A stretch of DNA of 32,109 nucleotides, taken from positions 1 to 32,109 of the forward strand of contig JBIQJB010000024.1 of NCBI GenBank assembly GCA_044507735.1, in the 5' to 3' direction. Positions 5,963-31,898 of the stretch are shown here, piece by piece (the stretch's first letter is position 1; the number at the start of each line of letters is the position of its first letter). Position numbers and translations under genes: made by a program. Under the pieces are notes generated by a model. It was not told the DNA's origin. It worked only from the letters and a program-made list of their open reading frames with translations, and made no database searches. The DNA is from Nitrosopumilales archaeon. Its GTDB lineage: Archaea > Thermoproteota > Nitrososphaeria > Nitrososphaerales > Nitrososphaeraceae.

Positions 5963-5966
5963 GTAG

Positions 5967-7073: not shown

Positions 7074-7176
7074 TATTATCACCACCAATTTCTCTAGTCT
7101 TTTGATACTATGAGGAGCTACAAATTTTTCCAAACGTTTATAATTGATCCGGGGATGGCTGGCTGCGGAGCTTGTA

Positions 7177-7950
7177 ATGGAGCAGGTTCATTCATTCTGT
7201 CTCATGAATGAAGAGGACGATGGCGGATATCCTGAGCTGTATGACAAGATCACTCATTATGCTTCGCAGAATTACGCTGTAATCTATGCAGTGGAAAACG
7301 ACACGATGCAAACGGTGAGACACATGCGCCGACAGGGCGCTGACGTCGAAACGCTTGTCGAGTCTGGAGCCCTAACAATAGTCGGCAGAAACAGAGTGTA
7401 CTCGGTTGAAGAAACCGATCTCGATGCCCATGCCCTCTTGAATACATGGCACGATCTAATATTGAAGATAAGGAACCGCTCTGATTTCGATGGCATACTC
7501 GCCATTGGCACTGCTGAAGTGTTCTTTGAGCATGCCATCGATCCGTGCAAGCTCATCAAGTACGAGAGGATGGTGGGCCAGAAATTTGCGATCCCGCTTG
7601 AAGCGATCTGCTGCTATAGCGAGGACAGCATTTCAAAGCTGTCTCTTGCTGAGGTAATTGCCATTCTGGATGCACATCACTCAACGATCCACCGCGGATC
7701 CCAATATAGGAAATGGCATCCTCAGAAGATCGTCTCGTTGGCGCGCAGTGGGCTGGAGAGGCACCTTGGCGCCGAGTTATCAAATTTGATCTTCAAGACT
7801 ATGAAACTCTGCTACAAAATCGGGGATGACGAGATCATTTCCAATCCCGCGATCTTGGAATCAATGTTGAAAAGAATAATTGGAAAACGCATGGCAGAGG
7901 CTACAATTGCGCAGATAAAGGAAGAAATCAGAAAATCTATTTTGTTCTGA
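7177..7950 (+). CDS. MEDS-like sensory-domain protein with C-terminal helical domain
   Basis: Pattern VIYAVE...GALTIV...LIKYE...LEAICCY...ILDAHH resembles MEDS. Start ATG 7177 preferred (TTTATAA at 7137-7143); the track start is 7144. Confidence 0.65.
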   Translation: MEQVHSFCLMNEEDDGGYPELYDKITHYASQNYAVIYAVENDTMQTVRHMRRQGADVETLVESGALTIVGRNRVYSVEETDLDAHALLNTWHDLILKIRNRSDFDGILAIGTAEVFFEHAIDPCKLIKYERMVGQKFAIPLEAICCYSEDSISKLSLAEVIAILDAHHSTIHRGSQYRKWHPQKIVSLARSGLERHLGAELSNLIFKTMKLCYKIGDDEIISNPAILESMLKRIIGKRMAEATIAQIKEEIRKSILF

Positions 7951-15710: not shown

Positions 15711-16136
15711 CTAGCGCATCGTCTTTAGTATGATTACAGTATTGGTGTCTGATACGCCCTCTATCTTGCGTATGTCATCTATACACTTGTTGATCTCCGC
15801 TATCGCCGGTGCTGCAATAATTGCGGCAATGTCGTATTGGCCAGTTATTTCGTAGACCACTTCGACTCCCCCAAGTTTCATCAGCCTGCCAGAGACTGCG
15901 GAGGTGTCCGCGGTCGATGTTACAGAGATCAGCGTTATAGCACTGGTCTTGTCACTTGCACCGAGTTCGATGGTAAAGCGCTTAATGATCCCGGTGTCTA
16001 CAAGGTTCTTGACCCTGCGCCTTACGGCCGATTCTGAAAGGCCTATGTCGTTAGCGATCTCCACAAACGCCTTGCGCGAATCTGCCTGCAGTATGCGGAT
16101 TATCTTTTCGTCTGTTTCATCAATGTTAGCTGACAT
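15711..16136 (-). CDS. lysM: Lrp/AsnC family regulator LysM
   Basis: IDETDEKIIRILQADSR...GLSESAVRRRVKNL HTH plus RAM domain VYEITGQYD; last gene of the lysW cluster. Confidence 0.88.
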   Translation of the reverse strand: MSANIDETDEKIIRILQADSRKAFVEIANDIGLSESAVRRRVKNLVDTGIIKRFTIELGASDKTSAITLISVTSTADTSAVSGRLMKLGGVEVVYEITGQYDIAAIIAAPAIAEINKCIDDIRKIEGVSDTNTVIILKTMR

Positions 16137-17307
16137 TCCGTCTCTTTTCCTCGTTAGTCAATACATTGTCCATTATATCAATTGCGCGGGAAACCGTCGT
16201 TTCATCCATTACGAGTGGCGGAAGAAGTCTTATGATGTTTCTTCCCGAATATAGCATCAGCAGTCCATTGCGAATTCCGTCAAAGAGCACATCCTTCACC
16301 TCGAAGCGGAGCTCCACACCCAGCATCATACCGAGGCCTCTCACTTCTCGAATTATCTTGTGCTTCTCCTTTAGCCTGTTCAGACCCTCTTTCCAGTGCT
16401 TTCCTACCTTGGCCGCGTTTTCAACCAGCTTGTCTTCGGTCAGAGCTTCAAGCGTAGCGGTACCTGCTGCGCAAGCTATTGGGCTTCCGCCAAACGTTGA
16501 CGAATGCTCGCCCAGCTTTGTTGCTTCAATTATCGCTGGTTTTGCAAGTATCAGCCCCATCGGGATGCCCCCTGCGATTCCCTTTGCAAGGCACATGATG
16601 TCCGGCGTGGTGTTCCAGTTCTGCCCAGCCCACATCTTGCCCGTCCTGCCAAGGCCCGCTTGTATTTCGTCGAATATCAGCACAAGGTTGCGCCTGTCAC
16701 AGATCTCCCTTATCTTTGGCAGGAGGTCGTCCGGTGGCACTATGATTCCCGTCTCTCCCTGAATCGGCTCCAGGATCACAGTCCCAACTGCATCGTCGAT
16801 GGCCTCTTCCAGCTTGGACGGGTCGCTGTATGGGACGAACTTGACTCCATCCAAAAGCGGCATGAACGATTTTCGGTATTTTTCGTTATATGTTACTGAA
16901 AGTGCGCCGAACGTTTTGCCATGGTACGCGCCGTTCATAGCTATCACGCCGTGCTTGCCAGTGTATTTGCGGGCGAACTTGAGAGCACCTTCGACAGATT
17001 CAGCGCCACTGTTTGTAAAGAACATCTTGCTCAAACCCGGCGGAGCAATGGTCGACATTTTTTCCATGAACTTGAGCCGAGTGTCGTTGTAGACTGACAT
17101 GTGCGCAGTTATCAGTGTGTCTGCCTGCCTTTTGATTGCAGCCACAACCCGGTCGTTGCAGTGGCCGACCAATGCAACGCCATAGCCTCCCATACAGTCG
17201 ATGTATTCCTTGCCGCTCGTGTCCCAAACCCTTGCGCCCTTGCCCCGGGCAAGGTTCACAGGAAACCGCTGGTAAAGCGCTGCCAGGTACTGGTCTTCTG
17301 TATTCAT
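16126..17307 (-). CDS. lysJ: [LysW]-aminoadipate/glutamate semialdehyde aminotransferase (LysJ/ArgD)
   Basis: Class III aminotransferase motifs NSGAESVE, YHGKT, EPIQGETG, FDEIQAGLGRTG, AKGIAGG and STFGG. Confidence 0.93.
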   Translation of the reverse strand: MNTEDQYLAALYQRFPVNLARGKGARVWDTSGKEYIDCMGGYGVALVGHCNDRVVAAIKRQADTLITAHMSVYNDTRLKFMEKMSTIAPPGLSKMFFTNSGAESVEGALKFARKYTGKHGVIAMNGAYHGKTFGALSVTYNEKYRKSFMPLLDGVKFVPYSDPSKLEEAIDDAVGTVILEPIQGETGIIVPPDDLLPKIREICDRRNLVLIFDEIQAGLGRTGKMWAGQNWNTTPDIMCLAKGIAGGIPMGLILAKPAIIEATKLGEHSSTFGGSPIACAAGTATLEALTEDKLVENAAKVGKHWKEGLNRLKEKHKIIREVRGLGMMLGVELRFEVKDVLFDGIRNGLLMLYSGRNIIRLLPPLVMDETTVSRAIDIMDNVLTNEEKRRNVS

Positions 17308-18107
17308 TTTGGAGTTATCACCGTGCAGTTATTGTGAGCAATCGCGGAGGAAATTGGGTTCTCGACTTGACCGGATGCGATGATCGCTTCCTTGACTCCC
17401 ATCTCAAGGGCCTCGGTGCAGGCAAGCACCTTCTTCTCCATCCCAAATCCTATCTTTGGCAGCGCGGCCTTGGCCTGCTCCAGCGTCATCGAGGTAACCA
17501 GCTTTTCGTTGAGCATGAGCCCGTTGACATTTGTGATGAATATAACCTTGTCTGCCTTTACCCCACCTGCGACATATGCAGCCGCCCTGTCTCCGTCAAC
17601 ATTGAGAAAATCATATTCTTCGCTCAGTGCAATTGGTGACACCACTGGCACATAGCCACTGTCAACCAGATTGTTCAGAAGTGTGGGATCAACTGCGTTT
17701 ATCTTGCCGGTGTAGCCGCCGTCAATCATCATTTTTCTCCCCTTTTCGTTTATTATCAACAGTTTCTTCTTGCGTTCCGCCTTTAGTATGCCCCCGTCAA
17801 TCCCTGCAATCCCCACAGCCTTGATACCCTGCCGGAGCAGCATGCCGGTGATGGCCTTGTTTATCTTGCCCGACATTACCATCGTGTAGATTTCCGCGGT
17901 TTCCTTGTCAGTGTATCTGCTGCGCACCCCACCGGGGGAGACAATGAATTTCTGTTCCTTGCCCAGCTTTGTGGCGGTAGCTGTAACTTCTTTGCCACCA
18001 CCATGCACAAAGACAAGCTTGTCCTTTCCAGCTATTGCCTTGATATCTGTCAGAGTAGAGGGGTGTAGCCCGTCTACTACGCTTCCGCCTATCTTGATGA
18101 CTATCAT
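17304..18107 (-). CDS. lysZ: [LysW]-aminoadipate/glutamate kinase (LysZ/ArgB)
   Basis: VIKIGGS, VHGGG, SRYTD, GGYTGKI, LNVDGDRAA and GMEKK. Confidence 0.93.
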   Translation of the reverse strand: MIVIKIGGSVVDGLHPSTLTDIKAIAGKDKLVFVHGGGKEVTATATKLGKEQKFIVSPGGVRSRYTDKETAEIYTMVMSGKINKAITGMLLRQGIKAVGIAGIDGGILKAERKKKLLIINEKGRKMMIDGGYTGKINAVDPTLLNNLVDSGYVPVVSPIALSEEYDFLNVDGDRAAAYVAGGVKADKVIFITNVNGLMLNEKLVTSMTLEQAKAALPKIGFGMEKKVLACTEALEMGVKEAIIASGQVENPISSAIAHNNCTVITPK

Positions 18108-19156
18108 ACCGGTGTCAGCGGGGTGTATTTCAGACCATCGGTCTCATCGTAGCCGGCCATAACGTTCATGACCTGTATCGCAGATCCGGCTGCTCCCTTC
18201 ATCAGGTTGTCTGACGCAGAAAGTGCCACTATCCTCTGGTTATATTCGTCTATGTCAAAGCCCACGTCGCAAAAGTTCGATCCTACCACAAACTTGGGAT
18301 CGGGGAACTTGTAGAGGCCCTTCTTGTCTCGTATCAGCCTGACAAAAGGCTCATTCTTGTACGAGTTGCGATACATCTTCCAAAGTTCAAGCTCTTCTAC
18401 CTGTCTCTTTAGGAAAGTGTGGTTGGTCGTCAGTATGCCCCTGACAATGTTGACTGCATGTGGACTCATGCTCACCTTGATCTGCTTTTTCGCTATCGCT
18501 GAAAGCTCTTGCTCGATTTCCCCTGTATGCCTGTGCTTTGCGGGCTTGTATGGCCTAACTACACCATAGCGCATTGCATGGTGGGTGCCAGCATTGGCCT
18601 TCTGCCCCGCGCCTGACGAGCCGATCTTGCTGTCTACCACCACGTGATCGGTGTCTATCAGGTTGTTTTCAATGAGCGGCTTTAGTGCAAGCAGCGAAGT
18701 GACTGCCATGCAGCCAGGGCATGACACCAGCTGAGCGTTCTTGATCTCCTCGCGGTGAAGCTCCGGCACGCCATAGACAGACTTGCTCAACATATCAGGG
18801 AATGGGTGCTCCCAACCGTACCATCTGACATAGTCCTTGGGGTTTTTGAGACGGAAATCAGCCGACAGGTCGATTACTTTCATGCCCCTGTCGTACAGAT
18901 CTTTGACTATCTTGTTCGCTTTGCCGTGTGGCACCGATGTGAACACTAGATCGCAATTGTTTGCCATCTTTTCAGTATCCATTGGCGAGAAAGTGATGTC
19001 AATGAATCCCTTCAGGCTCGGGTGGACGCGGTGCACATATTCACCGGCTTTTTGGCGCGATGTAACCATGCTTACTTCCACTTTTGGGTGTGTTACCAGT
19101 AGGCGGAGCAACTCGCCGCCCACATATCCAGAAGCTCCAACGACTCCGACTTTCAT
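18104..19156 (-). CDS. lysY: [LysW]-phosphate reductase / N-acetyl-gamma-glutamyl-phosphate reductase (LysY/ArgC)
   Basis: GVVGASGYVGGELLRLL, VIDLSADFRL, PGC, SSGAG, HRH and DNLMKGAAG; ATG at 19156. Confidence 0.95.
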   Translation of the reverse strand: MKVGVVGASGYVGGELLRLLVTHPKVEVSMVTSRQKAGEYVHRVHPSLKGFIDITFSPMDTEKMANNCDLVFTSVPHGKANKIVKDLYDRGMKVIDLSADFRLKNPKDYVRWYGWEHPFPDMLSKSVYGVPELHREEIKNAQLVSCPGCMAVTSLLALKPLIENNLIDTDHVVVDSKIGSSGAGQKANAGTHHAMRYGVVRPYKPAKHRHTGEIEQELSAIAKKQIKVSMSPHAVNIVRGILTTNHTFLKRQVEELELWKMYRNSYKNEPFVRLIRDKKGLYKFPDPKFVVGSNFCDVGFDIDEYNQRIVALSASDNLMKGAAGSAIQVMNVMAGYDETDGLKYTPLTPV

Positions 19157-19194
19157 TAGCAATTCTTCTCCCTTATTGCAGCAGAATTGTGCAT
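19156..19194 (-). CDS. Putative 12-aa leader peptide (uORF) MHNSAAIREKNC, coupled to lysY by a TAATG overlap
   Basis: ATG at 19194 lies at essentially the same distance from the TATA box as the argG ATG does in the duplicate promoter; its TAA overlaps the lysY ATG. Confidence 0.4.
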   Translation of the reverse strand: MHNSAAIREKNC

Positions 19195-19222
19195 GTTATA
19201 GAAAAGTCGCGTCAAAAATCCT

Positions 19223-19282
19223 CATTTATATTTTTTGGTCAGATATGACCTAATGCAGGTCAATGGTGACCAGAATTGGTCA
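19223..19282 (-). promoter_or_regulatory. Internal lysY promoter (TATA/BRE) with upstream GGTCA-N4-TGACC operator array
   Basis: Plus strand CATTTATATTTTTTGGTCAGATATGACCTAA; palindromes at 19237-19250 and 19258-19271, half-site at 19278-19282; first 31 nt are 28/31 identical to 21573-21603. Confidence 0.8.
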
Positions 19283-19285
19283 CCA

Positions 19286-20146
19286 TCACTTCCTTGCGAC
19301 CGTGACTGCATAATCTATCATTGCGCCAGGGATATCGGTCTTTGATACGCTGGCGGCGCCGTGGAACTCTACGGTGTTGTTGACTTCGTGTACTATCAGC
19401 CCACGCTTCTTGTCCTCCATCATGTCGACGCCCACAATACCTCCGCCGACTGCGTTGGCAGCTTTAATCGCCAAATCCTCAAGCTCTTTTGTAATCGGTG
19501 CAAGTTCCGCTTTGCCGCCACGGGCCACATTTGTGCGCCACTCTTTTTCTGCAGAGTAGCGATAAATGGCAGTTACAACGCTGTTACCTACTACGATGCA
19601 CCTTATGTCGCGTGGCGGCCTGTCAATCATTTCCTGAACGTAATAGATACGTGCAAATGGACTGTCGTCTTCTTCTCTCATTTCCACTATCATGCTAGCG
19701 GTCTCCGCGTCGCGCAGCGGGAAGACTCCCCTACCCCATGACCCAACGATTGGTTTGAGCACTAGCGGAAATCCGGTCTTCTGTATCGTTTCTAGTGCGC
19801 TCTCCGCGCTGAAGGCAAACTGTGTTCGGGGCGTCGGGATGTTGTTCTGTGCCAGCACAAGCGAGGTTATCAGCTTGTTGCCACAGGTCTCGGCCGCCTT
19901 GAACTTGTTTATCACGCTGAATCCCAGGTGTTCAAGACAGGCTGTGAGATAGAGCCCGCGGTAGTGGCTCACGCTCCTCTGCAGTATCACGTCGCCAAAA
20001 GAAAAGTCGTTCTTTTTGCTGTCGGTGCTGACAACAACAGTTTTTGCGTCCACTATCTGCGCTTTTATGCCCTTGCTCTGCGCCTTTTCATAAAGGGCCT
20101 TCTCTTCAAAGCGCACCTTGTCATAAATGATAGAGAGCTCTACCAT
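19286..20146 (-). CDS. lysX: LysW ligase, ATP-grasp (LysX/ArgX)
   Basis: KPIVGSWGRG, YVQE, RDIR, WRTNVARGG, GVD and EVN; directly follows lysW. Clustering with argG suggests a glutamate-accepting (ArgX-like) enzyme. Confidence 0.92.
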   Translation of the reverse strand: MVELSIIYDKVRFEEKALYEKAQSKGIKAQIVDAKTVVVSTDSKKNDFSFGDVILQRSVSHYRGLYLTACLEHLGFSVINKFKAAETCGNKLITSLVLAQNNIPTPRTQFAFSAESALETIQKTGFPLVLKPIVGSWGRGVFPLRDAETASMIVEMREEDDSPFARIYYVQEMIDRPPRDIRCIVVGNSVVTAIYRYSAEKEWRTNVARGGKAELAPITKELEDLAIKAANAVGGGIVGVDMMEDKKRGLIVHEVNNTVEFHGAASVSKTDIPGAMIDYAVTVARK

Positions 20147-20325
20147 TATTGTCCCCAGTCTTCGCCTACTGTTTCTGCCGGCTTCAGCTCAACCTTGTCC
20201 CCACTCCTTGAGGCGATTTCATAATCGCCTCCACAGTCGGGGCACGTAATGATCTCCCCGACGACCGAGTCTTCTGGAACGCTGATGTCGGCTCCACATT
20301 CTTGGCATTCAACTTTTGATCCCAT
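20146..20325 (-). CDS. lysW: Amino-group carrier protein LysW/ArgW with C-terminal EDWGQ
   Basis: MGSKVECQECG...CPDCG...PAETVGEDWGQ*: two CxxC and an acidic tail; TAATG overlaps with argG and lysX. Confidence 0.93.
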   Translation of the reverse strand: MGSKVECQECGADISVPEDSVVGEIITCPDCGGDYEIASRSGDKVELKPAETVGEDWGQ

Positions 20326-21545
20326 TATTTTTTTCCTCCTTCTTGTTTTTTGTCTGAAATCGCATCTGCAGCCACCGAGTTTGCGATGATGGACTGCAGG
20401 CCCCAAAGCTCAACGAATCCCTTTGCCAGACTCTGGTCAAAGGTAGACCCAGCGGCATAAGTCGCCAGATCGTTCTTGTACAGGGAATATTTCGATTCCC
20501 TTCCAACCACCCGGAGAGATCCCTTTTGCATCTTCAGCCTTACTTTTCCGGAGACTCGCACCTGAGTCGCATCTATAAACTTATCCAAGTCATTGCGCAA
20601 CGGGTCTTGCCACAATCCGGCATATGCTAGCCAGCTCCACTGATCGTCAACCATGCGCTTGAATGCAAGCTCGTGTTTTGTCAGCACCATCTTTTCCAGA
20701 TCCTTGTGCGCTTCAATTATAGTAACTGCGGCAGGCGCTTCATACACCTCTCTTGACTTGATGCCCACCATTCTGTCTTCAATGTGATCTACAATCCCAA
20801 CTCCATGTGCCCCGGCCCTGTCATTCACATATTGAATAAGGTCAATGAGAGGCATGTGCTTGCCGTCAACGGCTATGGGCACACCCTTCTCAAACTCAAT
20901 CTCGATATATCCAGCCTTGTCATTCTGGAAGTTGATATACTGAAATGCTTCCTCTGGCGGTTCAAAATTAGCATCTTCGATGTTGCCGCCCTCAACTGCC
21001 CGGCCCCAAAGGTTAAGGTCGATGCTATATTTCTTGGCCTCTGCGCTTATTGGGATGTTTTGCTCTTTTGCAAACGTCATTTCCACGTCTCGGGTTAGAT
21101 TCATGTCCCTGATGGGCGCAATGATCTTTAACTTTGGATTTAGCGCGCGCATCGTTACATCGAACCGGATTTGGTCGTTCCCCTTGCCAGTGCAACCATG
21201 TGCTATAGAGATCGCGCCCTCTTTGTTTGCGACTTCAACTGCCTTTGCAGCAATCAGGGGCCGTGCCAATGCAGTTGCAAGCGGATACTTGCCCTGATAC
21301 AGGCCGTTTGCCTTGATGCTAGGAACGACGTAGTCAAGAGCAAACTCTTCTCGGGCGTCAACATAGACGTGTTTTATTGCTCCGATCGCTTTGGCCTTTC
21401 GCTCGATCTCCTTAAAGTCGTCTTCCTGTCCGCAGTCAACGGTAACAGTTATGACATCCAGCTTGTGCAGCACCTGCAGGTATCTTATGCATACCGAAGT
21501 GTCCAAGCCTCCCGAGTAGGCCAAAACGACCTTGCCATTACTCAT
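20325..21545 (-). CDS. argG: Argininosuccinate synthase
   Basis: VVLAYSGGLDTS, ALARP, HGCTGKGNDQIRF, YSIDLNLWGR and GIKSREVYEAP; ATG 21545 is about 29 nt below the TATA box. Confidence 0.97.
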   Translation of the reverse strand: MSNGKVVLAYSGGLDTSVCIRYLQVLHKLDVITVTVDCGQEDDFKEIERKAKAIGAIKHVYVDAREEFALDYVVPSIKANGLYQGKYPLATALARPLIAAKAVEVANKEGAISIAHGCTGKGNDQIRFDVTMRALNPKLKIIAPIRDMNLTRDVEMTFAKEQNIPISAEAKKYSIDLNLWGRAVEGGNIEDANFEPPEEAFQYINFQNDKAGYIEIEFEKGVPIAVDGKHMPLIDLIQYVNDRAGAHGVGIVDHIEDRMVGIKSREVYEAPAAVTIIEAHKDLEKMVLTKHELAFKRMVDDQWSWLAYAGLWQDPLRNDLDKFIDATQVRVSGKVRLKMQKGSLRVVGRESKYSLYKNDLATYAAGSTFDQSLAKGFVELWGLQSIIANSVAADAISDKKQEGGKK

Positions 21546-21572
21546 GAATATATCGGTGCCGACCAAGCTCTA

Positions 21573-22315: not shown

Positions 22316-22619
22316 GGCCGCTGCCGCTCTCCCTCGCAGCCATTTGTACCGATATAGGAAGCTTGACTATGACCATAGCTAAAGCAAGCGAGCCCATGAT
22401 GGCCAAGCCCCGAATTTATCTACATCACCTTGATGCCACCACGAGCAGCAGCCATTCTGCCTTGTATTTGATATGTCGTACCAGCCCGCGGACAAGACTC
22501 AACATGGTGTATATACATTCACGAACATTTTGTATTGGCTTGGAGGTAGCGAAATCTTCTTCCAGTACGCTTCAAGAAACCATGCAAAGTTTATTTCATG
22601 CAGCTTGGGAAAAGCCCTT

Positions 22620-23525
22620 GTGTACCGGCGTTACACGCTAGACGAGGTAAAGCGCAAGATAGTCGATGTTTTGCAGAGCGCCGGAACCGGCCTGTCTGGA
22701 ATCGAGCTCGCAGACAAGACAGGCATCAACAGGATGACCATAACCAAATACCTGGACGTCATGCATGCTATGGGTCTGGTCAAAAAGAAGAAGACGGGCA
22801 ACGTCAACGTGTGGTTCCTCGAAACAGGGGTCGCGGATATCGAGTTTCCAGTCAACTATGTCCAGGTGCAGCAAAAGCTGATAAGTGCAATTCTGGCAGG
22901 AGAAGAAGAGCAAGCGCGCAGGATCCTGCTGAGTGTCCTAAATTCTAATGTTGACCAAGTAAAGGTGCTGACTGACGTGGTCATGCCAGTAGTAAACACT
23001 GTTGGTGAGCTCTACAGCAGGGGCAGGCTTGACAAGACCGAGAGGGCGTTCCTCCTCAACCTCATCATGGAGCTAATAGATCTTGTAAAATTTAATGTCA
23101 GGCCCACGGAGCAGAAAGCAAATGCCAATGTGCTTGTTGTCGCCGGCTCTGGAGACAAAGTCCATGCAGCCAAGAGTGCAGCCGTAGCGTTTTCTGTGCT
23201 TGGGTGGGATTCGATCTACATCGGAGATGTTGAGGAACAGATTGATCCCTTCTTTGATATCGACTTTCAGCGCTACATTTCCCGCGTCTGGAGCAACAAG
23301 CGCGGCCTGATGGTTATTTGCATATTTTCGTCTGGCGAAGGATCGCTCAGGTTCCTCTCATCTACAGCCAAGGCAATGAAGGGCAGGATTAGAGGAGAGC
23401 TTCGTATCGCTGTGGTTGCCATCCCGGAGCTGCAGGCTATAGCCGAAGAGAACTCGGACTATGTCGCAAAGGACCTGCTGTCGTTGGTAGAATGGGCTGA
23501 GCGTCAGTACAACATTGTGAAGTAG
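22620..23525 (+). CDS. wHTH transcriptional regulator with B12-binding-like cap/Rossmann domain
   Basis: GLSGIELADKTGINRMTITKYL HTH; DVVMPVVNTVGELYSRG cap helix; H...GWDSIYIG. GTG 22620 preferred (TTTATTT about 25-30 nt upstream). Confidence 0.75.
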   Translation: MYRRYTLDEVKRKIVDVLQSAGTGLSGIELADKTGINRMTITKYLDVMHAMGLVKKKKTGNVNVWFLETGVADIEFPVNYVQVQQKLISAILAGEEEQARRILLSVLNSNVDQVKVLTDVVMPVVNTVGELYSRGRLDKTERAFLLNLIMELIDLVKFNVRPTEQKANANVLVVAGSGDKVHAAKSAAVAFSVLGWDSIYIGDVEEQIDPFFDIDFQRYISRVWSNKRGLMVICIFSSGEGSLRFLSSTAKAMKGRIRGELRIAVVAIPELQAIAEENSDYVAKDLLSLVEWAERQYNIVK

Positions 23526-23534
23526 CCATGGCCA

Positions 23535-23996
23535 TCATACCTGTTGGAGAGGGATCGGAGTTATCGGCGGGGCGCCCGGAACTATTGCTTGCGTAACTAG
23601 AGTGATTATTACGCCAATGATAGCAAACACGATTATTGCAAGTATCGCTATTGCTAACGCCCGAATCCATCCGGTATCAAAGCCCTTCTTGAACACACCT
23701 ATCCATGCAATGAACGCAATGATGAAGGCAATGATACCAGGTATTGTGGTCTGATCACCGAATGCAACTGTCAGTGCTGCTACTGAGATAAAGAACACGA
23801 TCGCGTATACGATCGGACCAAACGCTGTAACCAACATTGCTCGCGTGAACCGTGCCTTGCCAAGGGTAAGAATCTTGGCGGAAATCCACACAGGAATTGC
23901 GACTATTATCCATACCGCGATGAGACCTATGATTACCGCGGCCACGACTGCAACAGTTTCAGCGACCTGCATCAGAAGATTTTGGAGCAATGGCAT
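23535..23996 (-). CDS. Hypothetical membrane protein (4 TM)
   Basis: Strongly hydrophobic 153-aa ORF; FDTGWIRALAIAIL. Confidence 0.8.
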   Translation of the reverse strand: MPLLQNLLMQVAETVAVVAAVIIGLIAVWIIVAIPVWISAKILTLGKARFTRAMLVTAFGPIVYAIVFFISVAALTVAFGDQTTIPGIIAFIIAFIAWIGVFKKGFDTGWIRALAIAILAIIVFAIIGVIITLVTQAIVPGAPPITPIPLQQV

Positions 23997-24309: not shown

Positions 24310-25215
24310 TTATGCTTCTTCCTGTGAAAGAGATGATATTTGCTGGGATTTCTTGGGCCCAACATCGCCATCATCATTAGTGGCATCCATCAGGTCCCTT
24401 ATAAAATCAAGACCTGATTTTGTCGCATGTTCGTAGCCCCTATCTCCAATATTGGGCTCAAAGCTGATGTACCCATCGTAGCAGGTTTCTTGCAGGCATC
24501 GAATGATAGTGGCAAAGTCGATATGGCCAAACCCGGGCATCTTTCTATTGTTGTCAGCAAAGTGCATGTGCTTTAGGTACTCGCCGGCAGTGCGTATGGC
24601 GTCTTCAAATGAATCCTCTTCTATGTTCATGTGAAAGGTATCCAGCAACATTCCAAGAGAATCGTGGTTCACCTGCCTGACTATTGCTAATGCGTCCTTT
24701 GCGGTTGAGCAATGTGGCGTGCTGTAGCGGTTGAGAGGTTCAAGAACGAGCTTGACGCCATAATCGGACGCAAACTTGGACAGATCTGCCAGAACTGGTA
24801 CAGCCTTGCGGGCAAGCCGCTCTTTGTCATTTTGGGAAAAAACATTGTGTGTCCTGTCAAAAAAGCTGGACGAGTCGTCTGCAAATAGGCAGATATTCAT
24901 CTCCTCTCCGTCCAGCAAGTTGCACAATTTGACGCAATCGTGCACGTACTGTATCGAGCTCTGAACCAGACCTTCGTCAGAACTCAAGAGCTTGCGTTTC
25001 CAGCCTTCTTCGCTGCTCCTGCCCCACATCCCGGTTATCCCGCAAACAGGCATACCAAACATCCCAAGGACATCCTCTAGTTTTCGAACATCTACCTCTT
25101 TTGGCTCGCCAAACATCTCCACAGCGTCGAACCCCTGCAAGGTCAGCTTTGAGAGCGTCGATTCGATCGGTTCTATCTTTCTAAAAGATGCAAGCGATAT
25201 GGAATACTTTGGCAT
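24310..25215 (-). CDS. Sugar phosphate isomerase/epimerase (AP-endonuclease-2 TIM barrel; ketose 3-epimerase/IolO-like)
   Basis: LEPLNRY, LLDTFHMNIEE, HMHFADNNRKMPGFGHIDF and YDGYISFE metal motifs. Confidence 0.88.
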   Translation of the reverse strand: MPKYSISLASFRKIEPIESTLSKLTLQGFDAVEMFGEPKEVDVRKLEDVLGMFGMPVCGITGMWGRSSEEGWKRKLLSSDEGLVQSSIQYVHDCVKLCNLLDGEEMNICLFADDSSSFFDRTHNVFSQNDKERLARKAVPVLADLSKFASDYGVKLVLEPLNRYSTPHCSTAKDALAIVRQVNHDSLGMLLDTFHMNIEEDSFEDAIRTAGEYLKHMHFADNNRKMPGFGHIDFATIIRCLQETCYDGYISFEPNIGDRGYEHATKSGLDFIRDLMDATNDDGDVGPKKSQQISSLSQEEA

Positions 25216-25226
25216 CTATGGACTCC

Positions 25227-26546
25227 CTAGGCTGCAAGACAGTGCACGATGTCAGTACATTTGGCAATGCCCGACTTTGCAATGCCATGCTTTTCGCTTG
25301 AACCATAAAATGCGAGCCCTTCTCCGGTGGCAGGGTCTGGGGGTCTGCCATGCGAGCCTTTCACCAAGCGTGCGTCAAGTGGTATTGATTTTGTCTTTGG
25401 ATCAAAGAAGAGCTCGACAGGATCGTATCCGGGTTTTCTATGGATGTCCACTCTACGTGCAAAATCAGGAGCCAAGTTCTCGTCATGCCACCAGTAGTAA
25501 CTGAACCAGGCGTCCTGCTTGGCAATCGCAACTAGTTCTCCGCTCCTTTCATGATCTATACCCAGCTTTTTCTTGCCCTCGCGATCAAGCACAATGTCAA
25601 CACCAGCCGCCGTCTCGATCACTTTTCTTGCTTCATGCTCAAATCCATCCTTGACAAACACGTGGGCCATTTGATGATCGACCATGGCAAACGCCTTGCT
25701 GTATTCAAAATCAAGATATTCCTTTCCGTGTATTGCGCGTACTGAGAGCAGGCCGGCATCTCGCAGAACTAGATTCAGAGGTGTCGCGTTCTTCACATTG
25801 TTAAATCCATATTCTGACAGGACTATGAACTGCGCCTGGTCCTTGGGCACCGTCTTTGAGACCTTGTCTACCAGGCGTCCCACAATTTCGTCTGCTTTCT
25901 TTATATCTTCTCTCACTTGCGGCGCGTCCTTTCCAAATCGCTGCGCAGAATAGTCGACATGGGGGATGTAGACAAATAGCAGCTCGGGCCGTTCGCTTTC
26001 AAAGGTATATTCAGCAGCATTTGCAATCCATTCACTTGACTTGACAGAGGCAAGCGGCCCCCAATAGCTTGCAAGATCGAATTCGCCAAATTTCTCCTTC
26101 AGTCTTTCATAATAACCTACAGGCTTTGAATAGCACCACATCAGCATTTTTTCGTCAAGATGGATAGGCCTCGGTGTCACAACAATATCCGAATTGGCAT
26201 ACATGGTGTTCTGCCAAAAGAGCACGGCGGTTTTCGCACCGTTGCGTTTGGCCATGTCCCACACCCTCTCTGTCTTGACGAGAGAGCTTGGTTGCTCCCA
26301 GAAAGATACGCTAAATGTGTCTCTGTCATAGAGGCCGTTTGCAATTATGCCGTGCTCTCTAGGATGCTTGCCCGAGAGAATGCTTGCTTGAACTGTGCAG
26401 GTGACTGCAGGGAATACTGGCTCCAGGGGAGCTGCTTCGCCGCCTTCTACAAGCTTGGAGATGTTTGGAGCAAGCCCCGAATCAAGGTGCTTCTGTTCCA
26501 ACCCGACAACATCAATAACTATAGAATGCTTCTTCTTCATCATCAT
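25227..26546 (-). CDS. eboF: EboF-like alkaline phosphatase / nucleotide pyrophosphatase family protein
   Basis: VIDVVGL, FPAVTCTVQAS (catalytic Thr), HGIIANG, YIPHVDY, SEYG, AMVDHQMAH, WFSYYWW, VDIHRKPGYDPVELF and LVKGSHG. Confidence 0.88.
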   Translation of the reverse strand: MMMKKKHSIVIDVVGLEQKHLDSGLAPNISKLVEGGEAAPLEPVFPAVTCTVQASILSGKHPREHGIIANGLYDRDTFSVSFWEQPSSLVKTERVWDMAKRNGAKTAVLFWQNTMYANSDIVVTPRPIHLDEKMLMWCYSKPVGYYERLKEKFGEFDLASYWGPLASVKSSEWIANAAEYTFESERPELLFVYIPHVDYSAQRFGKDAPQVREDIKKADEIVGRLVDKVSKTVPKDQAQFIVLSEYGFNNVKNATPLNLVLRDAGLLSVRAIHGKEYLDFEYSKAFAMVDHQMAHVFVKDGFEHEARKVIETAAGVDIVLDREGKKKLGIDHERSGELVAIAKQDAWFSYYWWHDENLAPDFARRVDIHRKPGYDPVELFFDPKTKSIPLDARLVKGSHGRPPDPATGEGLAFYGSSEKHGIAKSGIAKCTDIVHCLAA

Positions 26547-26595
26547 CTGACTTGGCTGCTCGTCAATATTCTACTATTGTTTAAATGAGTTAGCG

Positions 26596-27513
26596 TCAGG
26601 TCATGTATAGCTTTTTTGCTGTCACTACTGCCGGGATGATGAACAACAAAGTAGCCAATCCATAAGATAACCCAGCGGTTCCACTAATGAACACTGAATC
26701 GAAGATTATTATAGAGACTATCATGTTTCTTATCGCTTTTTGGACAGCCTGCGATGTGTCTTTTCCTCTGACATATTGCCTGAAGGTGATCGATATGACG
26801 GCGGCAAATATCGTCAAACTGACCAGAAACTCCCACTTCAGGGCAAGCAACAACCCAATCGCGGCTATGCCAGCAACAAGAACAAAGATCATGTAGAATG
26901 GGAGCATGCCGGGCTTTTCTCCTCCAACCTCCTTCTTGCTAAGCAGCGATATTGCGACGACATACACAAACAAAGATGCAGCTGCAAAGATGGCCGTTTC
27001 TGATTTCAGCGGGACACCGCCAACCAATGCAGCAGATATCGCGGGACTTGCACCCAAGATCACATTGAGAAACCGGGTTCCACCCATTGCGAAGGGACCG
27101 GCAGTAGTAGCACGTTTCAACCGGTAGTCATATGCAATAATCGCGGCAGTCAAGGCAAGGCTCACAGCAAGGGCAATAGGACCAATGGTCGTTAGAACTA
27201 TTGTGTTGGCAGCAATCATTGCGATCAGGGCTATGACCACTGCATGTTTACCAGGAACCCTTCCTGAAGGCAGAGGACGAGAGGGGCGCTCCTTTCTGTC
27301 CGTCTCGATATCAAAGTAGTCGTTCAGAGCAATGCCGGCGATGTATAACAACCCCGAAGAGACCATTAATGATATGAGATGCAGACCATTTGCCTCTGCC
27401 AGTGGCGTAGTCGCAAAATAGCCAGCCAGTATGTTGGAGGGCGTCGTGAATACATTTGGCAGCCTGATCAAGAGCAGGTACTGATGCAGGCGCGAACTTA
27501 CATGATCTTGCAA
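26596..27513 (-). CDS. eboC: EboC-like UbiA family prenyltransferase
   Basis: IRLPNVFT, NDYFDIETDRKERPSRPLPSGRV (Asp-rich motif), YD..LK, MGGTRFLNVILG and multiple TM helices. Confidence 0.88.
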   Translation of the reverse strand: MQDHVSSRLHQYLLLIRLPNVFTTPSNILAGYFATTPLAEANGLHLISLMVSSGLLYIAGIALNDYFDIETDRKERPSRPLPSGRVPGKHAVVIALIAMIAANTIVLTTIGPIALAVSLALTAAIIAYDYRLKRATTAGPFAMGGTRFLNVILGASPAISAALVGGVPLKSETAIFAAASLFVYVVAISLLSKKEVGGEKPGMLPFYMIFVLVAGIAAIGLLLALKWEFLVSLTIFAAVISITFRQYVRGKDTSQAVQKAIRNMIVSIIIFDSVFISGTAGLSYGLATLLFIIPAVVTAKKLYMT

Positions 27514-28343
27514 AGATAGTCGTATGCCTCCCTGGCCGCTTGGACAGGGTTATCTTGGTAGGGATAGAGCTCGACCGTCACAAACCCATCATATCCAATA
27601 TCGTCCATGGCATCAAATATTGGCCTGAAATCAATTGAACCCATACCCGGAATCAGATGGTTATGTACCCTGTTGCTTGCAATGTCGGCAAGATGAAAGT
27701 GCGAGATATAGCCTGACAGCTCGCATACAAGCTTGGCAGGCTCTTCATTTACGCAGTAGAAATGCCCGATGTCAAAGTTGAGCCCTATATGAGTAGAATC
27801 AATTTTTTCCATAAAGCGCATGAACTGGCGTGAGTTTTCGATTAGAAGGCCAGGTTCGGGCTCGACTAGCAGCTTAACATCTTGCTCCTCCGCAACATCT
27901 GCAGCTCTCGCAAGGCCTGTCAAGAATATTTCGAGCTTGTGAGGGTCTAAATCGTCTAAAGGCACCATCACAGGTCCTCCAGGCTCTGTTGAGAGGTGCT
28001 TTGCACCAAGCTCTTTGGCAAGCTGTATGCAGTCGATTGTGTGCCGTATGCGCAAGTCGCGAGCGTGTGCGTCGTCCTCTATCCAAGAAGGGTGGTAAAC
28101 GTCTCCTAGAGCATACAATGTAAATGCATTGAGATTTGAAATCTGTAATCCGCATGATTCAAGAGTGTTCCTAAGTGATTTGATCTGTCCGTTTCCAAAA
28201 TTTGGCGGATACGCGTGTGGCACATCACACAGGATCTCGGCTGCGCTGTAGCCTATCTTTGCAATCTCGCGCACCGAGTCTTCCAGCGAATACCGCTTGA
28301 ATGCATTTGTGCTGAATGCGAGTTGTTGCTTCCCCAACGTCAT
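27498..28343 (-). CDS. Sugar phosphate isomerase/epimerase TIM barrel (ebo-cluster associated)
   Basis: AFSTNAF, VEPEPG, LNFDIGH, HFHLAD..RVHNHLIPG.G.IDF and GYDGFVTVELY; ATGA overlap with the eboB stop. Confidence 0.87.
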   Translation of the reverse strand: MTLGKQQLAFSTNAFKRYSLEDSVREIAKIGYSAAEILCDVPHAYPPNFGNGQIKSLRNTLESCGLQISNLNAFTLYALGDVYHPSWIEDDAHARDLRIRHTIDCIQLAKELGAKHLSTEPGGPVMVPLDDLDPHKLEIFLTGLARAADVAEEQDVKLLVEPEPGLLIENSRQFMRFMEKIDSTHIGLNFDIGHFYCVNEEPAKLVCELSGYISHFHLADIASNRVHNHLIPGMGSIDFRPIFDAMDDIGYDGFVTVELYPYQDNPVQAAREAYDYLCKIM

Positions 28344-29152
28344 GGCTTCCAAGTAAACTTTGGAGACTGCCTGAAGAATTCATATGCATTGTAGAACGTC
28401 ACTCGCTCGATCTCATTGGTGCTGAACCCGGCCTTCCTCATCTCTCTTGCCACAAGTGGTACGCTTAGCGGATCAGACGGACCCCAGTCAGCTGCGCTAT
28501 GCACCATTATCCTTTCGGTGCCATATTTCCGGATAATGTTCATGGCCCGCTCGGGCGATAGCTTTGAAACAGGATAGACAGAGAGTCCTGCCCACATGCC
28601 AAGCTCAAGCGTCTTCTCTATGGTTTCTTCCACGTTGTGATCCACCAGTATCTTCCTCCGATTGTATCGCCTGCCCTTTTCGCTGTTCAAAATCGCTTCC
28701 ATCCTTTCCATCCCTGCTGGCTTGTTGTTATGCGGCAGATGGACTGTCATGAGCATGTCCCTTTCCAGTGCAATGTCCATCTGTTTTACCATGACCTCTT
28801 CTTCCAGATCATTTATCAGGTTGAAACCGATCTCTCCTACTGCGACGACCCTTTCTCTATCAAGATACTTTTTCATTGCTTCTATAGCATCTAGCGCAAG
28901 CGGGCGCTCTGTGGCTTCCTTTGGGTTTACCGAGATGCATACAAAATGCTCAATCCCGTAGTCCTTTGCCCTCTTTGTCTCAAAAGTTATCATGTGCTCC
29001 CAGTAGTCCTCAAACGTGGCGACGGCGGTGCGCGGACTGCCCAACCAAAATGAGGGCTGCACCACGACTTCTATTCCAGCCTTGGACATTGCATCATAAT
29101 CGTCCGTTGTCCGGGAATACATGTGGATATGTGGTTCAAATAGCCTTGTCAT
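28340..29152 (-). CDS. eboB: EboB-like TatD family metallohydrolase
   Basis: FEPHIHMYSRTTDDYDAM, PSFWLGSPR, NPKEA, VGEIG, VHLPH, VDHN and SAADWGPSDPL; start moved to ATG 29152. Confidence 0.88.
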   Translation of the reverse strand: MTRLFEPHIHMYSRTTDDYDAMSKAGIEVVVQPSFWLGSPRTAVATFEDYWEHMITFETKRAKDYGIEHFVCISVNPKEATERPLALDAIEAMKKYLDRERVVAVGEIGFNLINDLEEEVMVKQMDIALERDMLMTVHLPHNNKPAGMERMEAILNSEKGRRYNRRKILVDHNVEETIEKTLELGMWAGLSVYPVSKLSPERAMNIIRKYGTERIMVHSAADWGPSDPLSVPLVAREMRKAGFSTNEIERVTFYNAYEFFRQSPKFTWKP

Positions 29153-29266
29153 GCACGATGATAAACTAGTTGTAACTCTTTTTAGGTTGTAGAACAAACA
29201 CCATTGAACAAACTTACAGAAGGGCAGCGGGACTCCCTTATTATTATTATAGATAAAAGACGTATC

Positions 29267-30340
29267 GTGCTTGCAGCGGTATTCCATGGTCCAAACAACA
29301 TAGCAGTTAGCGAAGTTCCCATGGTCGCCACTACCAACAATAACAACAATCATCATGCGATTCTAAAGGTGAATGCTTGCGCGGTGTGTGGGTATGATGC
29401 TCGAGTTTTTAGAAACGGCCACAGGAAGGTCAGGCCTCCTGTGATTCTGGGGCATGAGCTCTGCGGCGAGATTCAGAAGACTGTCAGGACGCAAGATGGC
29501 ACCACAATAAGTGCAGGCACAAGAGTGGCAATATGCCCACTGATCCCATGCCTCAGCTGTCACTACTGCCGCAATGGACACTATAATCTATGTACAGAGC
29601 TAAATGAGATCGGCTCAAGCCTCGACGGTGGCTTTGCACAGTATGTCAGCATACCCGACCAGATAATTAAGATCGGAGGACTCGTGCCGGTGCCGGACAG
29701 CCTGAGCGACGAGGAAGCCGCACTGCTTGAACCCCTGGCTTGCTGCCTTAACGGCCTGTCGCGGACAGGACTGCCTGCAAAGGAAACACCAGTGGTCATA
29801 ATAGGCGACGGTCCGATTGGGCTCTTGCACCTGCAGCTGTTCAAAAGGGTGGCGGGTGCCAAGGTGGCAATCGTAGGCAGGGTTCCAGCAAGGCTGCAGA
29901 AGGCAAGCGCAATGGGCGCCGATTCAGTGTTTGTCTCCCGCCAGGAATCCGGCCGCGAGGATGCAATTCTTCACGACATAATCGATTTCACGGGCAGGGA
30001 TGGCGCGGGTATTACAGTAGTGGCGACGAGCAACCCTTCGGCGTTTGAGCTTGCAACAAAGGTTGCGGGCAAGAATTCTGTGATTAACTTGTTTGCAGGC
30101 ATGCAAGGGGATCAAGAGTTTTCGCTCGACCCCAACTGGTTGCACTATAACCAGATCTCTGTCACCGGCACTTTCAGCTCCAACCCCTCCATGCTTCAAG
30201 ACGCGGCCAGAATCGCAGCAGAAAGAACGGTAGACCTGGCAGAGATCGTAACGCACAGGTACGCTCTCGAAGAAATCGAAAAGGCCATGCAGGCGACAGA
30301 GAAATACTATGGTTTGAGAGCAGTAATAAACAGGTTCTGA
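29267..30340 (+). CDS. Zinc-dependent polyol/alcohol dehydrogenase (MDR, sorbitol/threonine DH-like)
   Basis: CAVCGYD, ILGHELCG, structural Zn C-x2-C-x2-C-x7-C, GGFAQY, LLEPLACC and IIGDGPIG; GTG 29267 preferred. Confidence 0.9.
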   Translation: MLAAVFHGPNNIAVSEVPMVATTNNNNNHHAILKVNACAVCGYDARVFRNGHRKVRPPVILGHELCGEIQKTVRTQDGTTISAGTRVAICPLIPCLSCHYCRNGHYNLCTELNEIGSSLDGGFAQYVSIPDQIIKIGGLVPVPDSLSDEEAALLEPLACCLNGLSRTGLPAKETPVVIIGDGPIGLLHLQLFKRVAGAKVAIVGRVPARLQKASAMGADSVFVSRQESGREDAILHDIIDFTGRDGAGITVVATSNPSAFELATKVAGKNSVINLFAGMQGDQEFSLDPNWLHYNQISVTGTFSSNPSMLQDAARIAAERTVDLAEIVTHRYALEEIEKAMQATEKYYGLRAVINRF

Positions 30341-30567: not shown

Positions 30568-30641
30568 TGGGCCGTAAGGGATTTGAACCCTCGACCTTTC
30601 GATTATCAGTCGAACGCTCCACCAAGCTGAGCTAACGGCCC
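30568..30641 (-). tRNA. tRNA-Ile (GAT)
   Basis: Reverse complement GGGCCGTTAGCTCAGCTTGGTGGAGCGTTCGACT-GAT-AATCGAAAGGTCGAGGGTTCAAATCCCTTACGGCCCA folds as a cloverleaf; no intron; TTAAATAA about 25 nt upstream. Confidence 0.96.
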
Positions 30642-31245: not shown

Positions 31246-31554
31246 ATAGGCAAGAAAAAGGTACTTTCTGAGTCGGAGTTGAAGGAAATGGTCCTGCCTC
31301 AAGAGGGCGAGCTGCTGGGCCGCGTCATCAAGCTGGTCGGCGGCGACAACATAATTGTAAAGTGCACTGACGGCAAGGTAAGGACCTGCCGGATCAGAGG
31401 AAAGATAAAGAGAAGGATGTGGATAAGGGACGGCGATTTGGTCCTTGTTGCGCCTTGGGACTTTCAGTCAGACAGAGCTGATATCATCTGGCGATACATT
31501 TCTGCCCACGCTGAGAAGATGAAGGCAGACGGGCTGCTGCAAGGCCTCGACTAG
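31246..31554 (+). CDS. eif1A: Translation initiation factor aIF-1A, apparent ATA start
   Basis: GELLGRVIKLVGG...CRIRGKIKRRMWIRDGDLVLVAPWDFQ..RADIIWRY. The frame extends upstream as ATA-GKKKVLSESELKEM, bounded by an in-frame TGA at 31237. Confidence 0.92.
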   Translation: MGKKKVLSESELKEMVLPQEGELLGRVIKLVGGDNIIVKCTDGKVRTCRIRGKIKRRMWIRDGDLVLVAPWDFQSDRADIIWRYISAHAEKMKADGLLQGLD

Positions 31555-31821: not shown

Positions 31822-31898
31822 GGGCCGGTAGTTTAGTCCGGTAGAATACCTGCCTTGCACGTAGGTGGTCGTGGGTTCAAATCCCACCCGGTCCACCA
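31822..31898 (+). tRNA. tRNA-Ala (TGC)
   Basis: GGGCCGGTAGTTTAGTCCGGTAGAATACCTGCCT-TGC-ACGTAGGTGGTCGTGGGTTCAAATCCCACCCGGTCCACCA; G3:U70 Ala identity pair; CCA encoded. Confidence 0.96.

Follow-up and report, generated by a model that had tools for sequence, protein, structure and literature searches.

The window analysed here comprises 32,109 nucleotides of contig JBIQJB010000024.1 (GenBank assembly GCA_044507735.1), from a soil ammonia-oxidising archaeon of the Nitrososphaeraceae, and contains a compact group of six genes encoding a TatD-fold metal hydrolase (TatD), two TIM barrel proteins (TIM1 and TIM2), a membrane prenyltransferase of the UbiA family (UbiA), a phosphodiesterase and a zinc-dependent dehydrogenase. 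Considered together, the relationships of these proteins and the linkage of their genes suggest that the group is probably a reduced biosynthetic operon of the ebo family, fed with inositol, the product of which would be a prenylated small metabolite derived from a cyclitol.

Reciprocal searches linked two of the six proteins directly to Ebo counterparts. The canonical cluster of Arenibacter palladensis, verified as a reference by its model scores (EboC 379 bits, EboD 576 bits with PRK06203, EboE 487 bits), supplied the Ebo proteins that were searched back against the whole genome of the window, which is 97% complete, using tblastn with a threshold of E ≤ 1e-3. The sole match to EboB was TatD (40% over 264 amino acids (aa), E = 2.8e-68) and the sole match to EboF was the phosphodiesterase (43% over 425 aa, E = 3e-107), both relationships being reciprocal. 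A survey of loci conducted with one genome per species and a seven-sequence EboC alignment gave 238 confirmed stretches, and in the 80 loci retained from these (68 bacterial, 12 archaeal) window TatD matched a gene adjoining EboC in 64 of the 68 bacterial loci (near full length in 61, with 35–52% identity), and the phosphodiesterase did so in 57 (near full length in 55, with 38–54% identity). TatD, of which AF_1765 is a relative with a solved structure, also retains all 39 invariant columns of a nine-sequence EboB alignment, including the HxH motif. In an EboB tree of 41 rows the window-type archaeal sequences formed one clade (support 100/100), joined weakly (80/62) to a second archaeal type plus one Acidobacteria sequence, while Chloroflexota with Bacillota, and Bacteroidota with Leptospira, made up separate groups. 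By these measures TatD and the phosphodiesterase belong to the EboB and EboF families, so that the window possesses both of these members of canonical ebo, and the unique reciprocal matches uphold the assignment given to them by an earlier inspection of the DNA (the sequence-only reading).

TIM1 scored 36–38 bits against the EboE model NF035939, which has a cut-off of 250. Alignment of a TIM1-family profile with a canonical EboE profile using hhalign gave a probability of 97.1% (E = 5.9e-11; 199 columns; 18% identity), and an EPEP motif was common to both profiles. Judged from these profiles, TIM1, formerly labelled a 'TIM-barrel isomerase', is a remote homologue of EboE. The barrel encoded between TatD and eboC elsewhere was 48–49% identical to TIM1 in Bacillus and Paenibacillus and 41–42% identical in haloarchaea, and the solved relatives of TIM1 were MJ1311 and TM_0416. 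According to a recent preprint, ebo genes determine production of thallusin, which is abolished by deletion of eboB, eboC, eboE or eboF (10.64898/2026.05.21.724671); with TIM1 accepted as a remote EboE homologue, that four-gene core is arguably complete in the window.

A different function for the TatD and TIM1 pair would be that of nucleases repairing the damage caused by a genotoxic natural product, the cluster then serving as a resistance module. The precedent comes from a yatakemycin preprint, in which the TatD-type YtkR4 co-occurs with the xylose-isomerase-like TIM protein YtkR5, and in which a resistance role is proposed for 'ebo-like clusters' containing a phosphodiesterase, an extra TIM, a UbiA protein and an inositol-phosphate synthase (10.1101/2024.09.16.613364). 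Such a role would nevertheless seem highly improbable for the window genes. The same preprint gives about 24% identity between EboB and YtkR4, whereas window TatD is 35–52% identical to EboB genes lying within ebo clusters; the translational coupling to prenyltransferase and phosphodiesterase genes, and the linkage to inositol synthase seen elsewhere, fit metabolism better; and the eboB deletion that abolishes thallusin synthesis was made in a planctomycete (10.64898/2026.05.21.724671).

With regard to UbiA, the best NCBIfam models were EboC (NF035940; 154.6 bits, cut-off 250) followed by SCO3242 (NF045897; 147 bits, cut-off 260), while models for digeranylgeranylglyceryl phosphate (DGGGP) synthase recorded 44–71 bits against cut-offs of 269–353. 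A search of 1.84 billion representatives returned 5910 matches, and 124 of the best 150 were scanned against NCBIfam, the other 26 having been dropped as fragments or because of odd lengths. All 124 matched EboC or SCO3242 only (E ≤ 1e-30) and six exceeded the EboC cut-off, results that place UbiA in a broad EboC-like clade lying mostly outside the NCBI equivalog model. When 21 sequences of that clade were aligned, the protein retained the N-D-x-x-D-x-x-x-D motif along with the rest of the invariant columns; it is 27–36% identical to bacterial EboC. In a quick FastTree analysis of 32 rows (one of which, L046, is a 59-aa fragment whose placement should be ignored), the EboC-like proteins, window UbiA among them, were set apart from heme O synthase, MenA-like and DGGGP synthase-like paralogues with a support of 97. 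The proteins of ammonia oxidisers formed a single clade (98) and those of haloarchaea grouped with Streptomyces and Planctomycetota, a pattern which suggests that the two archaeal groups may have acquired EboC by separate transfers.

The distribution of the EboC-like gene is patchy at several ranks. It was detected (E ≤ 1e-30) in 170 of 238 Nitrososphaeraceae genomes, in 164 of 232 once six unpublished genomes (G519, G521, G574, G628, G646 and G022) were set aside, and in 90 of the 116 of high quality; another tally includes the unpublished genomes G009 and G022. The positive genomes represent 17 of the 18 genera in the family, and 37 of the 71 genomes of the genus to which the window belongs. 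The names attached to matching relatives (Nitrososphaera, Nitrososphaeraceae and Ca. Nitrososphaera gargensis, the last with a close homologue of TatD) assign the window to Nitrososphaera. In a sample of 401 genomes from the phylum, five reached at least 130 bits, namely the window genome, one other member of its family and three of the 56 genomes of a sister family, all others scoring 74–100 bits. The gene was thus not found in 68 of the 238 family genomes, nor in 53 of the 56 sister-family genomes. The three positive sister-family genomes, together with genome G027, carry the order TIM-TatD-TIM1-EboC-EboF plus an unrelated dehydrogenase (24–28% identity). The gene order of the window is repeated in further genomes of Nitrososphaera, in Nitrosotalea and in other metagenome-assembled genomes (MAGs) of Thaumarchaeota, so the synteny whose loss would have told against the sequence-only reading is kept. 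Because the same order recurs across genomes, and the four-gene core also occurs in bacteria and haloarchaea, the arrangement is not a chance one. Some genomes show an eroded or dispersed cluster; in genome G415 (locus L041), for example, its genes lie in three pieces within about 12 kb.

Housekeeping functions for UbiA, as DGGGP synthase, MenA or heme O synthase, were considered and rejected. The other UbiA genes of the window genome comprise two heme O synthases, both above cut-off, and one MenA-like gene. Three relatives in the same genus carry separate paralogues matching DGGGP synthase models (74–82 bits), one alongside the EboC-like gene (G509) and two in genomes lacking it (G508 and G513). 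These paralogues and the distribution of the EboC-like gene exclude a housekeeping role, to which the low DGGGP synthase scores are a further objection, and tree and models alike place UbiA in the EboC clade, not with the DGGGP synthase or MenA identities that had been named beforehand as fatal to the ebo assignment. A whole-genome search of the window assembly revealed no separate DGGGP synthase-like paralogue, which may reflect a hole in the assembly or else an unusual complement of genes for lipid synthesis.

It might be proposed instead that the cluster makes a structural or carrier membrane lipid, with a long isoprenoid chain on an inositol-like head group, for use in the cell envelope. 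EboC is an integral-membrane UbiA protein, the next-best models after EboC and SCO3242 were archaeal lipid prenyltransferases (PRK12884, 71 bits; PRK12882, 61 bits), and archaea contain abundant geranylgeranyl diphosphate. This proposal is nonetheless considered unlikely, since the gene is so unevenly distributed within both the genus of the window and the sister family, and the cluster is plasmid-borne in Bacillus and haloarchaea; a tblastn search of plasmids with window TatD returned 60 records, including 27 from Streptomyces, six from Bacillus and three from Haloferax. Characterised EboC enzymes, moreover, prenylate aromatic acceptors with farnesyl diphosphate, the acceptors described being hydroxyquinaldic acids (PMC9235831; 10.64898/2026.05.21.724671) and, in the preprint, trihydroxyquinaldic acid (10.64898/2026.05.21.724671). 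For the novel membrane or carrier lipid favoured by the sequence-only reading, the analysis gave nothing that points to it, the bacterial product described in the preprint being the meroterpenoid thallusin and not a lipid (10.64898/2026.05.21.724671).

By way of contrast with a complete canonical set, three ebo genes are missing. The EboA model (NF035938) had no match in the genome of the window, which is 97% complete, nor on Haloferax volcanii pHV3 or the Bacillus cereus plasmid, the same model giving control scores of 176 bits on a Streptomyces plasmid and 167 bits on the Leptospira genome; according to Yurchenko et al. (2016), EboG is an alternative to EboA (PMC5133447). For the EboD cyclase, a sugar-phosphate cyclase resembling DHQ synthase, there was no PF01761 match in the window genome (the control being positive in 11 of 14 genomes) and no tblastn match to Arenibacter EboD. 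No canonical EboE (a TIM barrel of about 380–400 aa) lay above cut-off in that genome, and Arenibacter EboE likewise had no tblastn match (E ≤ 1e-3). The absence of eboA, eboD and a canonical eboE, previously claimed for the window, is confirmed by these searches for the 97%-complete genome.

The remaining two genes of the group showed a different distribution from the core. TIM2 gave its best NCBIfam scores with IolO 5-keto-L-gluconate epimerase (155 bits, cut-off 300) and D-psicose 3-epimerase (140 bits), and its best solved relatives were TM_0416 (E = 2.4e-28), which is taken here to be IolO, the title of the PDB entry calling it uncharacterized, and ketose 3-epimerases. Where they could be aligned, TIM2 and TIM1-type barrels were 17–24% identical. 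Among the 12 archaeal loci, six had a near full-length homologue of TIM2 (48–64% identity); the 68 bacterial loci had none. The dehydrogenase, the translation of which contains the catalytic and structural zinc cysteines and a GxGxxG motif, matched scyllo-inosose 3-dehydrogenase IolM best (149 bits, cut-off 450); near full-length homologues occurred in seven of the 12 archaeal loci, with one weak 30% match among the 68 bacterial ones. A search of solved structures with the dehydrogenase gave no match at E ≤ 1e-35, a threshold that was too strict for this to be informative. In Nitrososphaera, Nitrosotalea and REEA MAGs it stays adjacent to the cluster in three orientations (55–78% identity). 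On the evidence of these loci, only ammonia oxidisers show the addition of TIM2 and the IolM-like dehydrogenase.

An inositol-derived ring is favoured by four observations, namely the linkage to inositol synthase elsewhere, the IolM and IolO models as best matches, the two inositol synthase copies in the window genome, and the lack of EboD. Inositol-3-phosphate synthase is an immediate neighbour of the cluster in four unrelated lineages: B. cereus (plasmid pN435-1.1), Haloferax volcanii (pHV3), Halobaculum, and Streptomyces of the SCO3242 type. According to the preprint, actinomycetes without eboD use ino genes, and an inositol feed was proposed for them (10.64898/2026.05.21.724671). In the archaeal pathway, the steps of which are predicted from family membership and linkage, the ring would come from inositol phosphate and not from EboD, the inositol phosphate being supplied by one of two unlinked inositol-1-phosphate synthases. 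The IolM-like zinc dehydrogenase would oxidise a ring hydroxyl to a ketone, next to which TIM2 and the EboE-like TIM1 would carry out epimerisation or dehydration; EboF would remove the phosphate, the metal hydrolase EboB would perform a hydrolytic or ring-modifying step, and the membrane prenyltransferase EboC would attach the isoprenoid chain. The final product may be a signal, a metal chelator or something else.

The same best models could also be taken to indicate an operon for catabolism of inositol or a keto-sugar, given that IolM and IolO are catabolic inositol enzymes and that TM_0416 is the closest solved relative of TIM2. That interpretation was rejected as very improbable: both scores fall far short of equivalog cut-offs, genes for a transporter, a kinase and an aldolase are all lacking from the operon, catabolism would have no use for a membrane prenyltransferase, the cluster adjoins a biosynthetic inositol-phosphate synthase in other organisms, and the hosts are chemolithoautotrophic ammonia oxidisers.

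If biosynthesis from inositol is accepted, the product could conceivably be thallusin or saccharoquinoline itself, a cyclitol and L-aspartate giving a hydroxyquinaldic acid which EboC would farnesylate and cyclise. Counterparts of all four preprint core genes are present in the window, and the preprint reports both that two archaeal phyla have ebo clusters and that an actinomycete without eboD produces thallusin (10.64898/2026.05.21.724671). This precise outcome is nevertheless regarded as improbable, in that TIM1 has the low identity to canonical EboE noted above (18% over 199 columns), EboA was not found in the window genome yet is present in the type to which the actinomycete producers belong, EboC is only 27–36% identical to its bacterial counterparts, and the available passages of the preprint describe no archaeon as screened for thallusin (10.64898/2026.05.21.724671). 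The mention there of two archaeal phyla also lowers the novelty of an archaeal ebo cluster as such. Literature searches found no paper characterising an ebo cluster in archaea, an outcome in keeping with the earlier statement that none was known to have been characterised in ammonia-oxidising archaea.

Several results weigh against an inositol-fed, prenylated product. Two genomes of the same genus (G021 and G020) have neither EboF nor TIM2 adjoining EboC; in G021 (locus L019) EboF is on another contig, and in G020 (locus L021), which is 94% complete, EboF was not found. Both inositol synthase copies of the window genome lie on other contigs among housekeeping neighbours. The EboC score of 154.6 bits is below the NCBIfam equivalog cut-off of 250, and the substrate may differ; the IolM (149 of 450) and IolO (155 of 300) scores are far below theirs, so that the reactions are guessed by family. 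Without EboA, EboD and a canonical EboE the product may differ from the bacterial one, or unlinked genes may be needed, and the product assigned to the archaeal cluster is a prediction from sequence.

A broader proposition, advanced tentatively and with some doubt, is that an inositol-derived prenylated metabolite not seen before, possibly a thallusin-like meroterpenoid or metal-binding signal, is made by most of the ammonia-oxidising archaea of soils and also, separately, by many haloarchaea. If so, archaea would have a widespread pathway for a secondary metabolite, one taken up from bacteria on at least two occasions, and the compound might act on plants, algae or nearby microbes in the soil. 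Very few pathways for natural products have been described in archaea, and literature searches found no meroterpenoid pathway in ammonia oxidisers; about three quarters of the Nitrososphaeraceae genomes of high quality carry the EboC-like gene, and its bacterial relatives have recently been tied to thallusin, an algal morphogen active at picomolar levels. Were a related archaeal compound to be made, soil nitrifiers would join the chemistry of cross-kingdom signalling or metal chelation, and a minimal system lacking EboA and EboD would be available for study of the EboB, EboE and EboF steps. Haloferax volcanii, a genetically tractable archaeon, has the homologous cluster on pHV3, which makes direct testing possible.

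The six open reading frames (ORFs) lay at their predicted positions, and their coordinates and spacing agree with the earlier description of five packed minus-strand genes plus a divergently transcribed plus-strand zinc dehydrogenase (Table 1). The TatD and TIM1 genes share an ATGA stop/start overlap (28340–28343), TIM1 having an in-frame ATG at 28343, while TIM1 and UbiA overlap by 16 nt (27498–27513). Gaps of just 49 nt (UbiA to phosphodiesterase) and 11 nt (phosphodiesterase to TIM2) leave the operon without any unassigned ORF. The GTG start of the dehydrogenase lines up with the ATG of its relatives. A Pfam scan supported the family of all six genes, both TIM barrels matching AP_endonuc_2, and the motifs HIHMYSRTTDDY, FWLGSPR and VDIHRKPGYDPVELF, quoted in the sequence-only reading, were all found in the translations. 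A search of sequencing runs gave 24 records, 20 of them containing all or part of the stretch, with no RNA data set among the 24.

Table 1. Coordinates of the ebo-like cluster within the window, with lengths and Pfam scores.
Feature	Position	Strand	Details
TatD (EboB-like TatD-fold metal hydrolase), first operon gene	28340..29152	-	270 aa; PF01026 50 bits
TIM1 (xylose-isomerase-like TIM barrel, remote EboE homologue)	27498..28343	-	281 aa; PF01261 146 bits
UbiA (EboC-like membrane prenyltransferase)	26596..27513	-	305 aa; Pfam UbiA 66 bits
Phosphodiesterase (EboF-like type I phosphodiesterase / alkaline-phosphatase superfamily)	25227..26546	-	439 aa; PF01663 203 bits
TIM2 (ketose-3-epimerase / IolO-like TIM barrel), lineage-specific accessory gene	24310..25215	-	301 aa; PF01261 123 bits
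Zn-dependent medium-chain dehydrogenase, IolM-like, divergently transcribed	29267..30340	+	357 aa; ADH_N 81.5 bits and ADH_zinc_N 56 bits
Divergent intergenic region with conserved ~31-nt element	29153..29266	.	alignment of 12 intergenic regions

The 114-nt region separating TatD from the dehydrogenase contains an element of about 31 nt (29169–29199) with the structure GTTGTAAC-TCTTTTTAG-GTTGTAGAAC, in which a T-rich TATA-like core lies between direct repeat copies. The element was near-identical in seven of the 12 aligned rows (the window and six Nitrososphaera loci) and looser in three more, and may act as promoter or operator for the dehydrogenase and the operon alike.

Just downstream of TIM2 the window encodes a protein with a winged-helix helix-turn-helix (HTH) and a B12-binding_2 domain (22473–23525, plus strand) and a 153-aa membrane protein without a Pfam match (23535–23996, minus strand). 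Both genes hold the same position in the same-genus genomes G017 and G001, and the B12-type regulator, adjoining the cluster as it does, may be a candidate for its regulation. Farther away, genes for argininosuccinate synthase, a RimK/LysX ATP-grasp protein, a semialdehyde dehydrogenase, an amino-acid kinase and a class-III aminotransferase make up an unremarkable block for arginine/lysine biosynthesis, of the LysX type known from archaea (16126–21566, minus strand), and housekeeping genes encode topoisomerase VI subunits B and A (3926–7073, plus strand). Further housekeeping genes on the other side are those for tRNA-Ile(GAT) (30568–30641, minus strand), translation factor aIF-1A (31279–31554, plus strand) and tRNA-Ala(TGC) (31822–31898, plus strand).

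Comparison with the canonical eboABCDEF systems of Arenibacter palladensis and Leptospira yanagawae revealed homologous EboB, EboC and EboF, with EboB and EboF clustered with the UbiA gene as in the window. The canonical operon, however, has EboA, EboD and an EboE of about 400 aa, none of which was found in the window genome. The order is B-C-D-E-F in Arenibacter, for which a 2016 paper places eboA at a separate locus (PMC5133447), and C-D-B-E-F in Acidobacteriota. In Leptospira, the genome of which contains an EboA match, B-C-D-E-F is preceded by an unassigned ORF. Canonical and Streptomyces EboB proteins carry a C-terminal extension that is lacking in the window protein; it amounts to about 20–35 residues in Arenibacter, Leptospira and Streptomyces, is shorter in Acidobacteriota and Chloroflexota rows, and is missing from the G091, B. 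cereus and Haloferax proteins as well as from that of the window.

A closer likeness is offered by B. cereus plasmid pN435-1.1 (NZ_CP063976.1), with the series TIM, TatD, TIM, eboC, phosphodiesterase and inositol-3-phosphate synthase. The core order TatD, TIM, eboC, phosphodiesterase is the same in this plasmid, in Paenibacillus xerothermodurans and in the window, the Bacillus and Paenibacillus proteins being 47–50% (TatD) and 46–47% (EboF) identical to those of the window and the cluster likewise lacking EboA, EboD and canonical EboE. The same five-gene core recurs in another B. cereus record and in Paenibacillus, while in Bacillus bingmayongensis TIM, EboC and EboF are accompanied by no more than a partial TatD match; the TIM1-type barrel also occurs in one Acidobacteria and one Planctomycetota locus. 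The B. cereus type differs from the window in having a second TIM1-family paralogue upstream, where the window has the epimerase-like TIM2, in the inositol-3-phosphate synthase directly downstream, in its plasmid location, in the lack of an IolM-like dehydrogenase, and in an EboC above the NCBIfam cut-off (321 bits), that of the window being below it. Just upstream of their ebo clusters, Arenibacter (canonical) and B. cereus (TIM type) alike encode a pyrroloquinoline quinone-dependent dehydrogenase of the glucose/sorbosone type, which may be a recurrent accessory gene of such clusters; the positions recorded for these genes are 4469–7828 in locus L100, 4114–5544 in L064 and 3782–5203 in L124.

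Haloferax volcanii DS2 pHV3 (NC_013964.1, 242688–249367) and Halobaculum salinum possess a TatD-TIM-UbiA-TIM operon plus a phosphodiesterase, with identities to the window of 39–41% for TatD and 38–43% for EboF, and a UbiA also below cut-off (EboC 159 bits, SCO3242 157 bits). On pHV3 the locus tags are HVO_RS01040 for TatD, HVO_RS01035 for the TIM, HVO_RS01030 for UbiA, HVO_RS01055 for the phosphodiesterase and HVO_RS01050 for inositol-3-phosphate synthase. Unlike the window, the haloarchaea have the phosphodiesterase and inositol-3-phosphate synthase in a separate divergent operon, and both of their TIMs are TIM1-type with no dehydrogenase, where the window has TIM2 and a dehydrogenase. The SCO3242-type cluster on the plasmid of Streptomyces sp. 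NBC_00376 (NZ_CP107961.1) encodes inositol-3-phosphate synthase, the SCO3242 prenyltransferase, a TIM, EboA, TatD, EboE and a phosphatase; it shares with the window the lack of EboD and the possession of an extra TIM, in this case of the sugar-phosphate isomerase type, its TatD and phosphatase being 42% and 43% identical to the window proteins. It differs in having EboA and a canonical EboE, in a TIM only 27% identical to TIM1, and in a prenyltransferase scoring 347 bits on the SCO3242 model (window 147, cut-off 260). For the IolM and IolO systems, the best models for the dehydrogenase and TIM2 notwithstanding the shortfall in score, the context is catabolic, whereas that of the window is biosynthetic.

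The window thus has the arrangement that defines TIM-type ebo-like clusters, with TatD, TIM1, an EboC-like UbiA and EboF together and no EboA, EboD or canonical EboE, though two further traits of the type, namely another paralogue of the TIM1 family and an inositol-3-phosphate synthase alongside, are lacking. The idea that archaea alone invented this architecture was considered and rejected, the same core being found on B. cereus plasmids and in Paenibacillus, some Acidobacteriota and some Planctomycetota. As far as these alignments indicate, the core of the window (EboB, the EboE-like TIM, EboC and EboF) is of a bacterial and archaeal type; the 'distinct archaeal variant' first envisaged gives way to a core common to bacteria, to which TIM2 and the IolM-like dehydrogenase alone add a feature specific to ammonia oxidisers.

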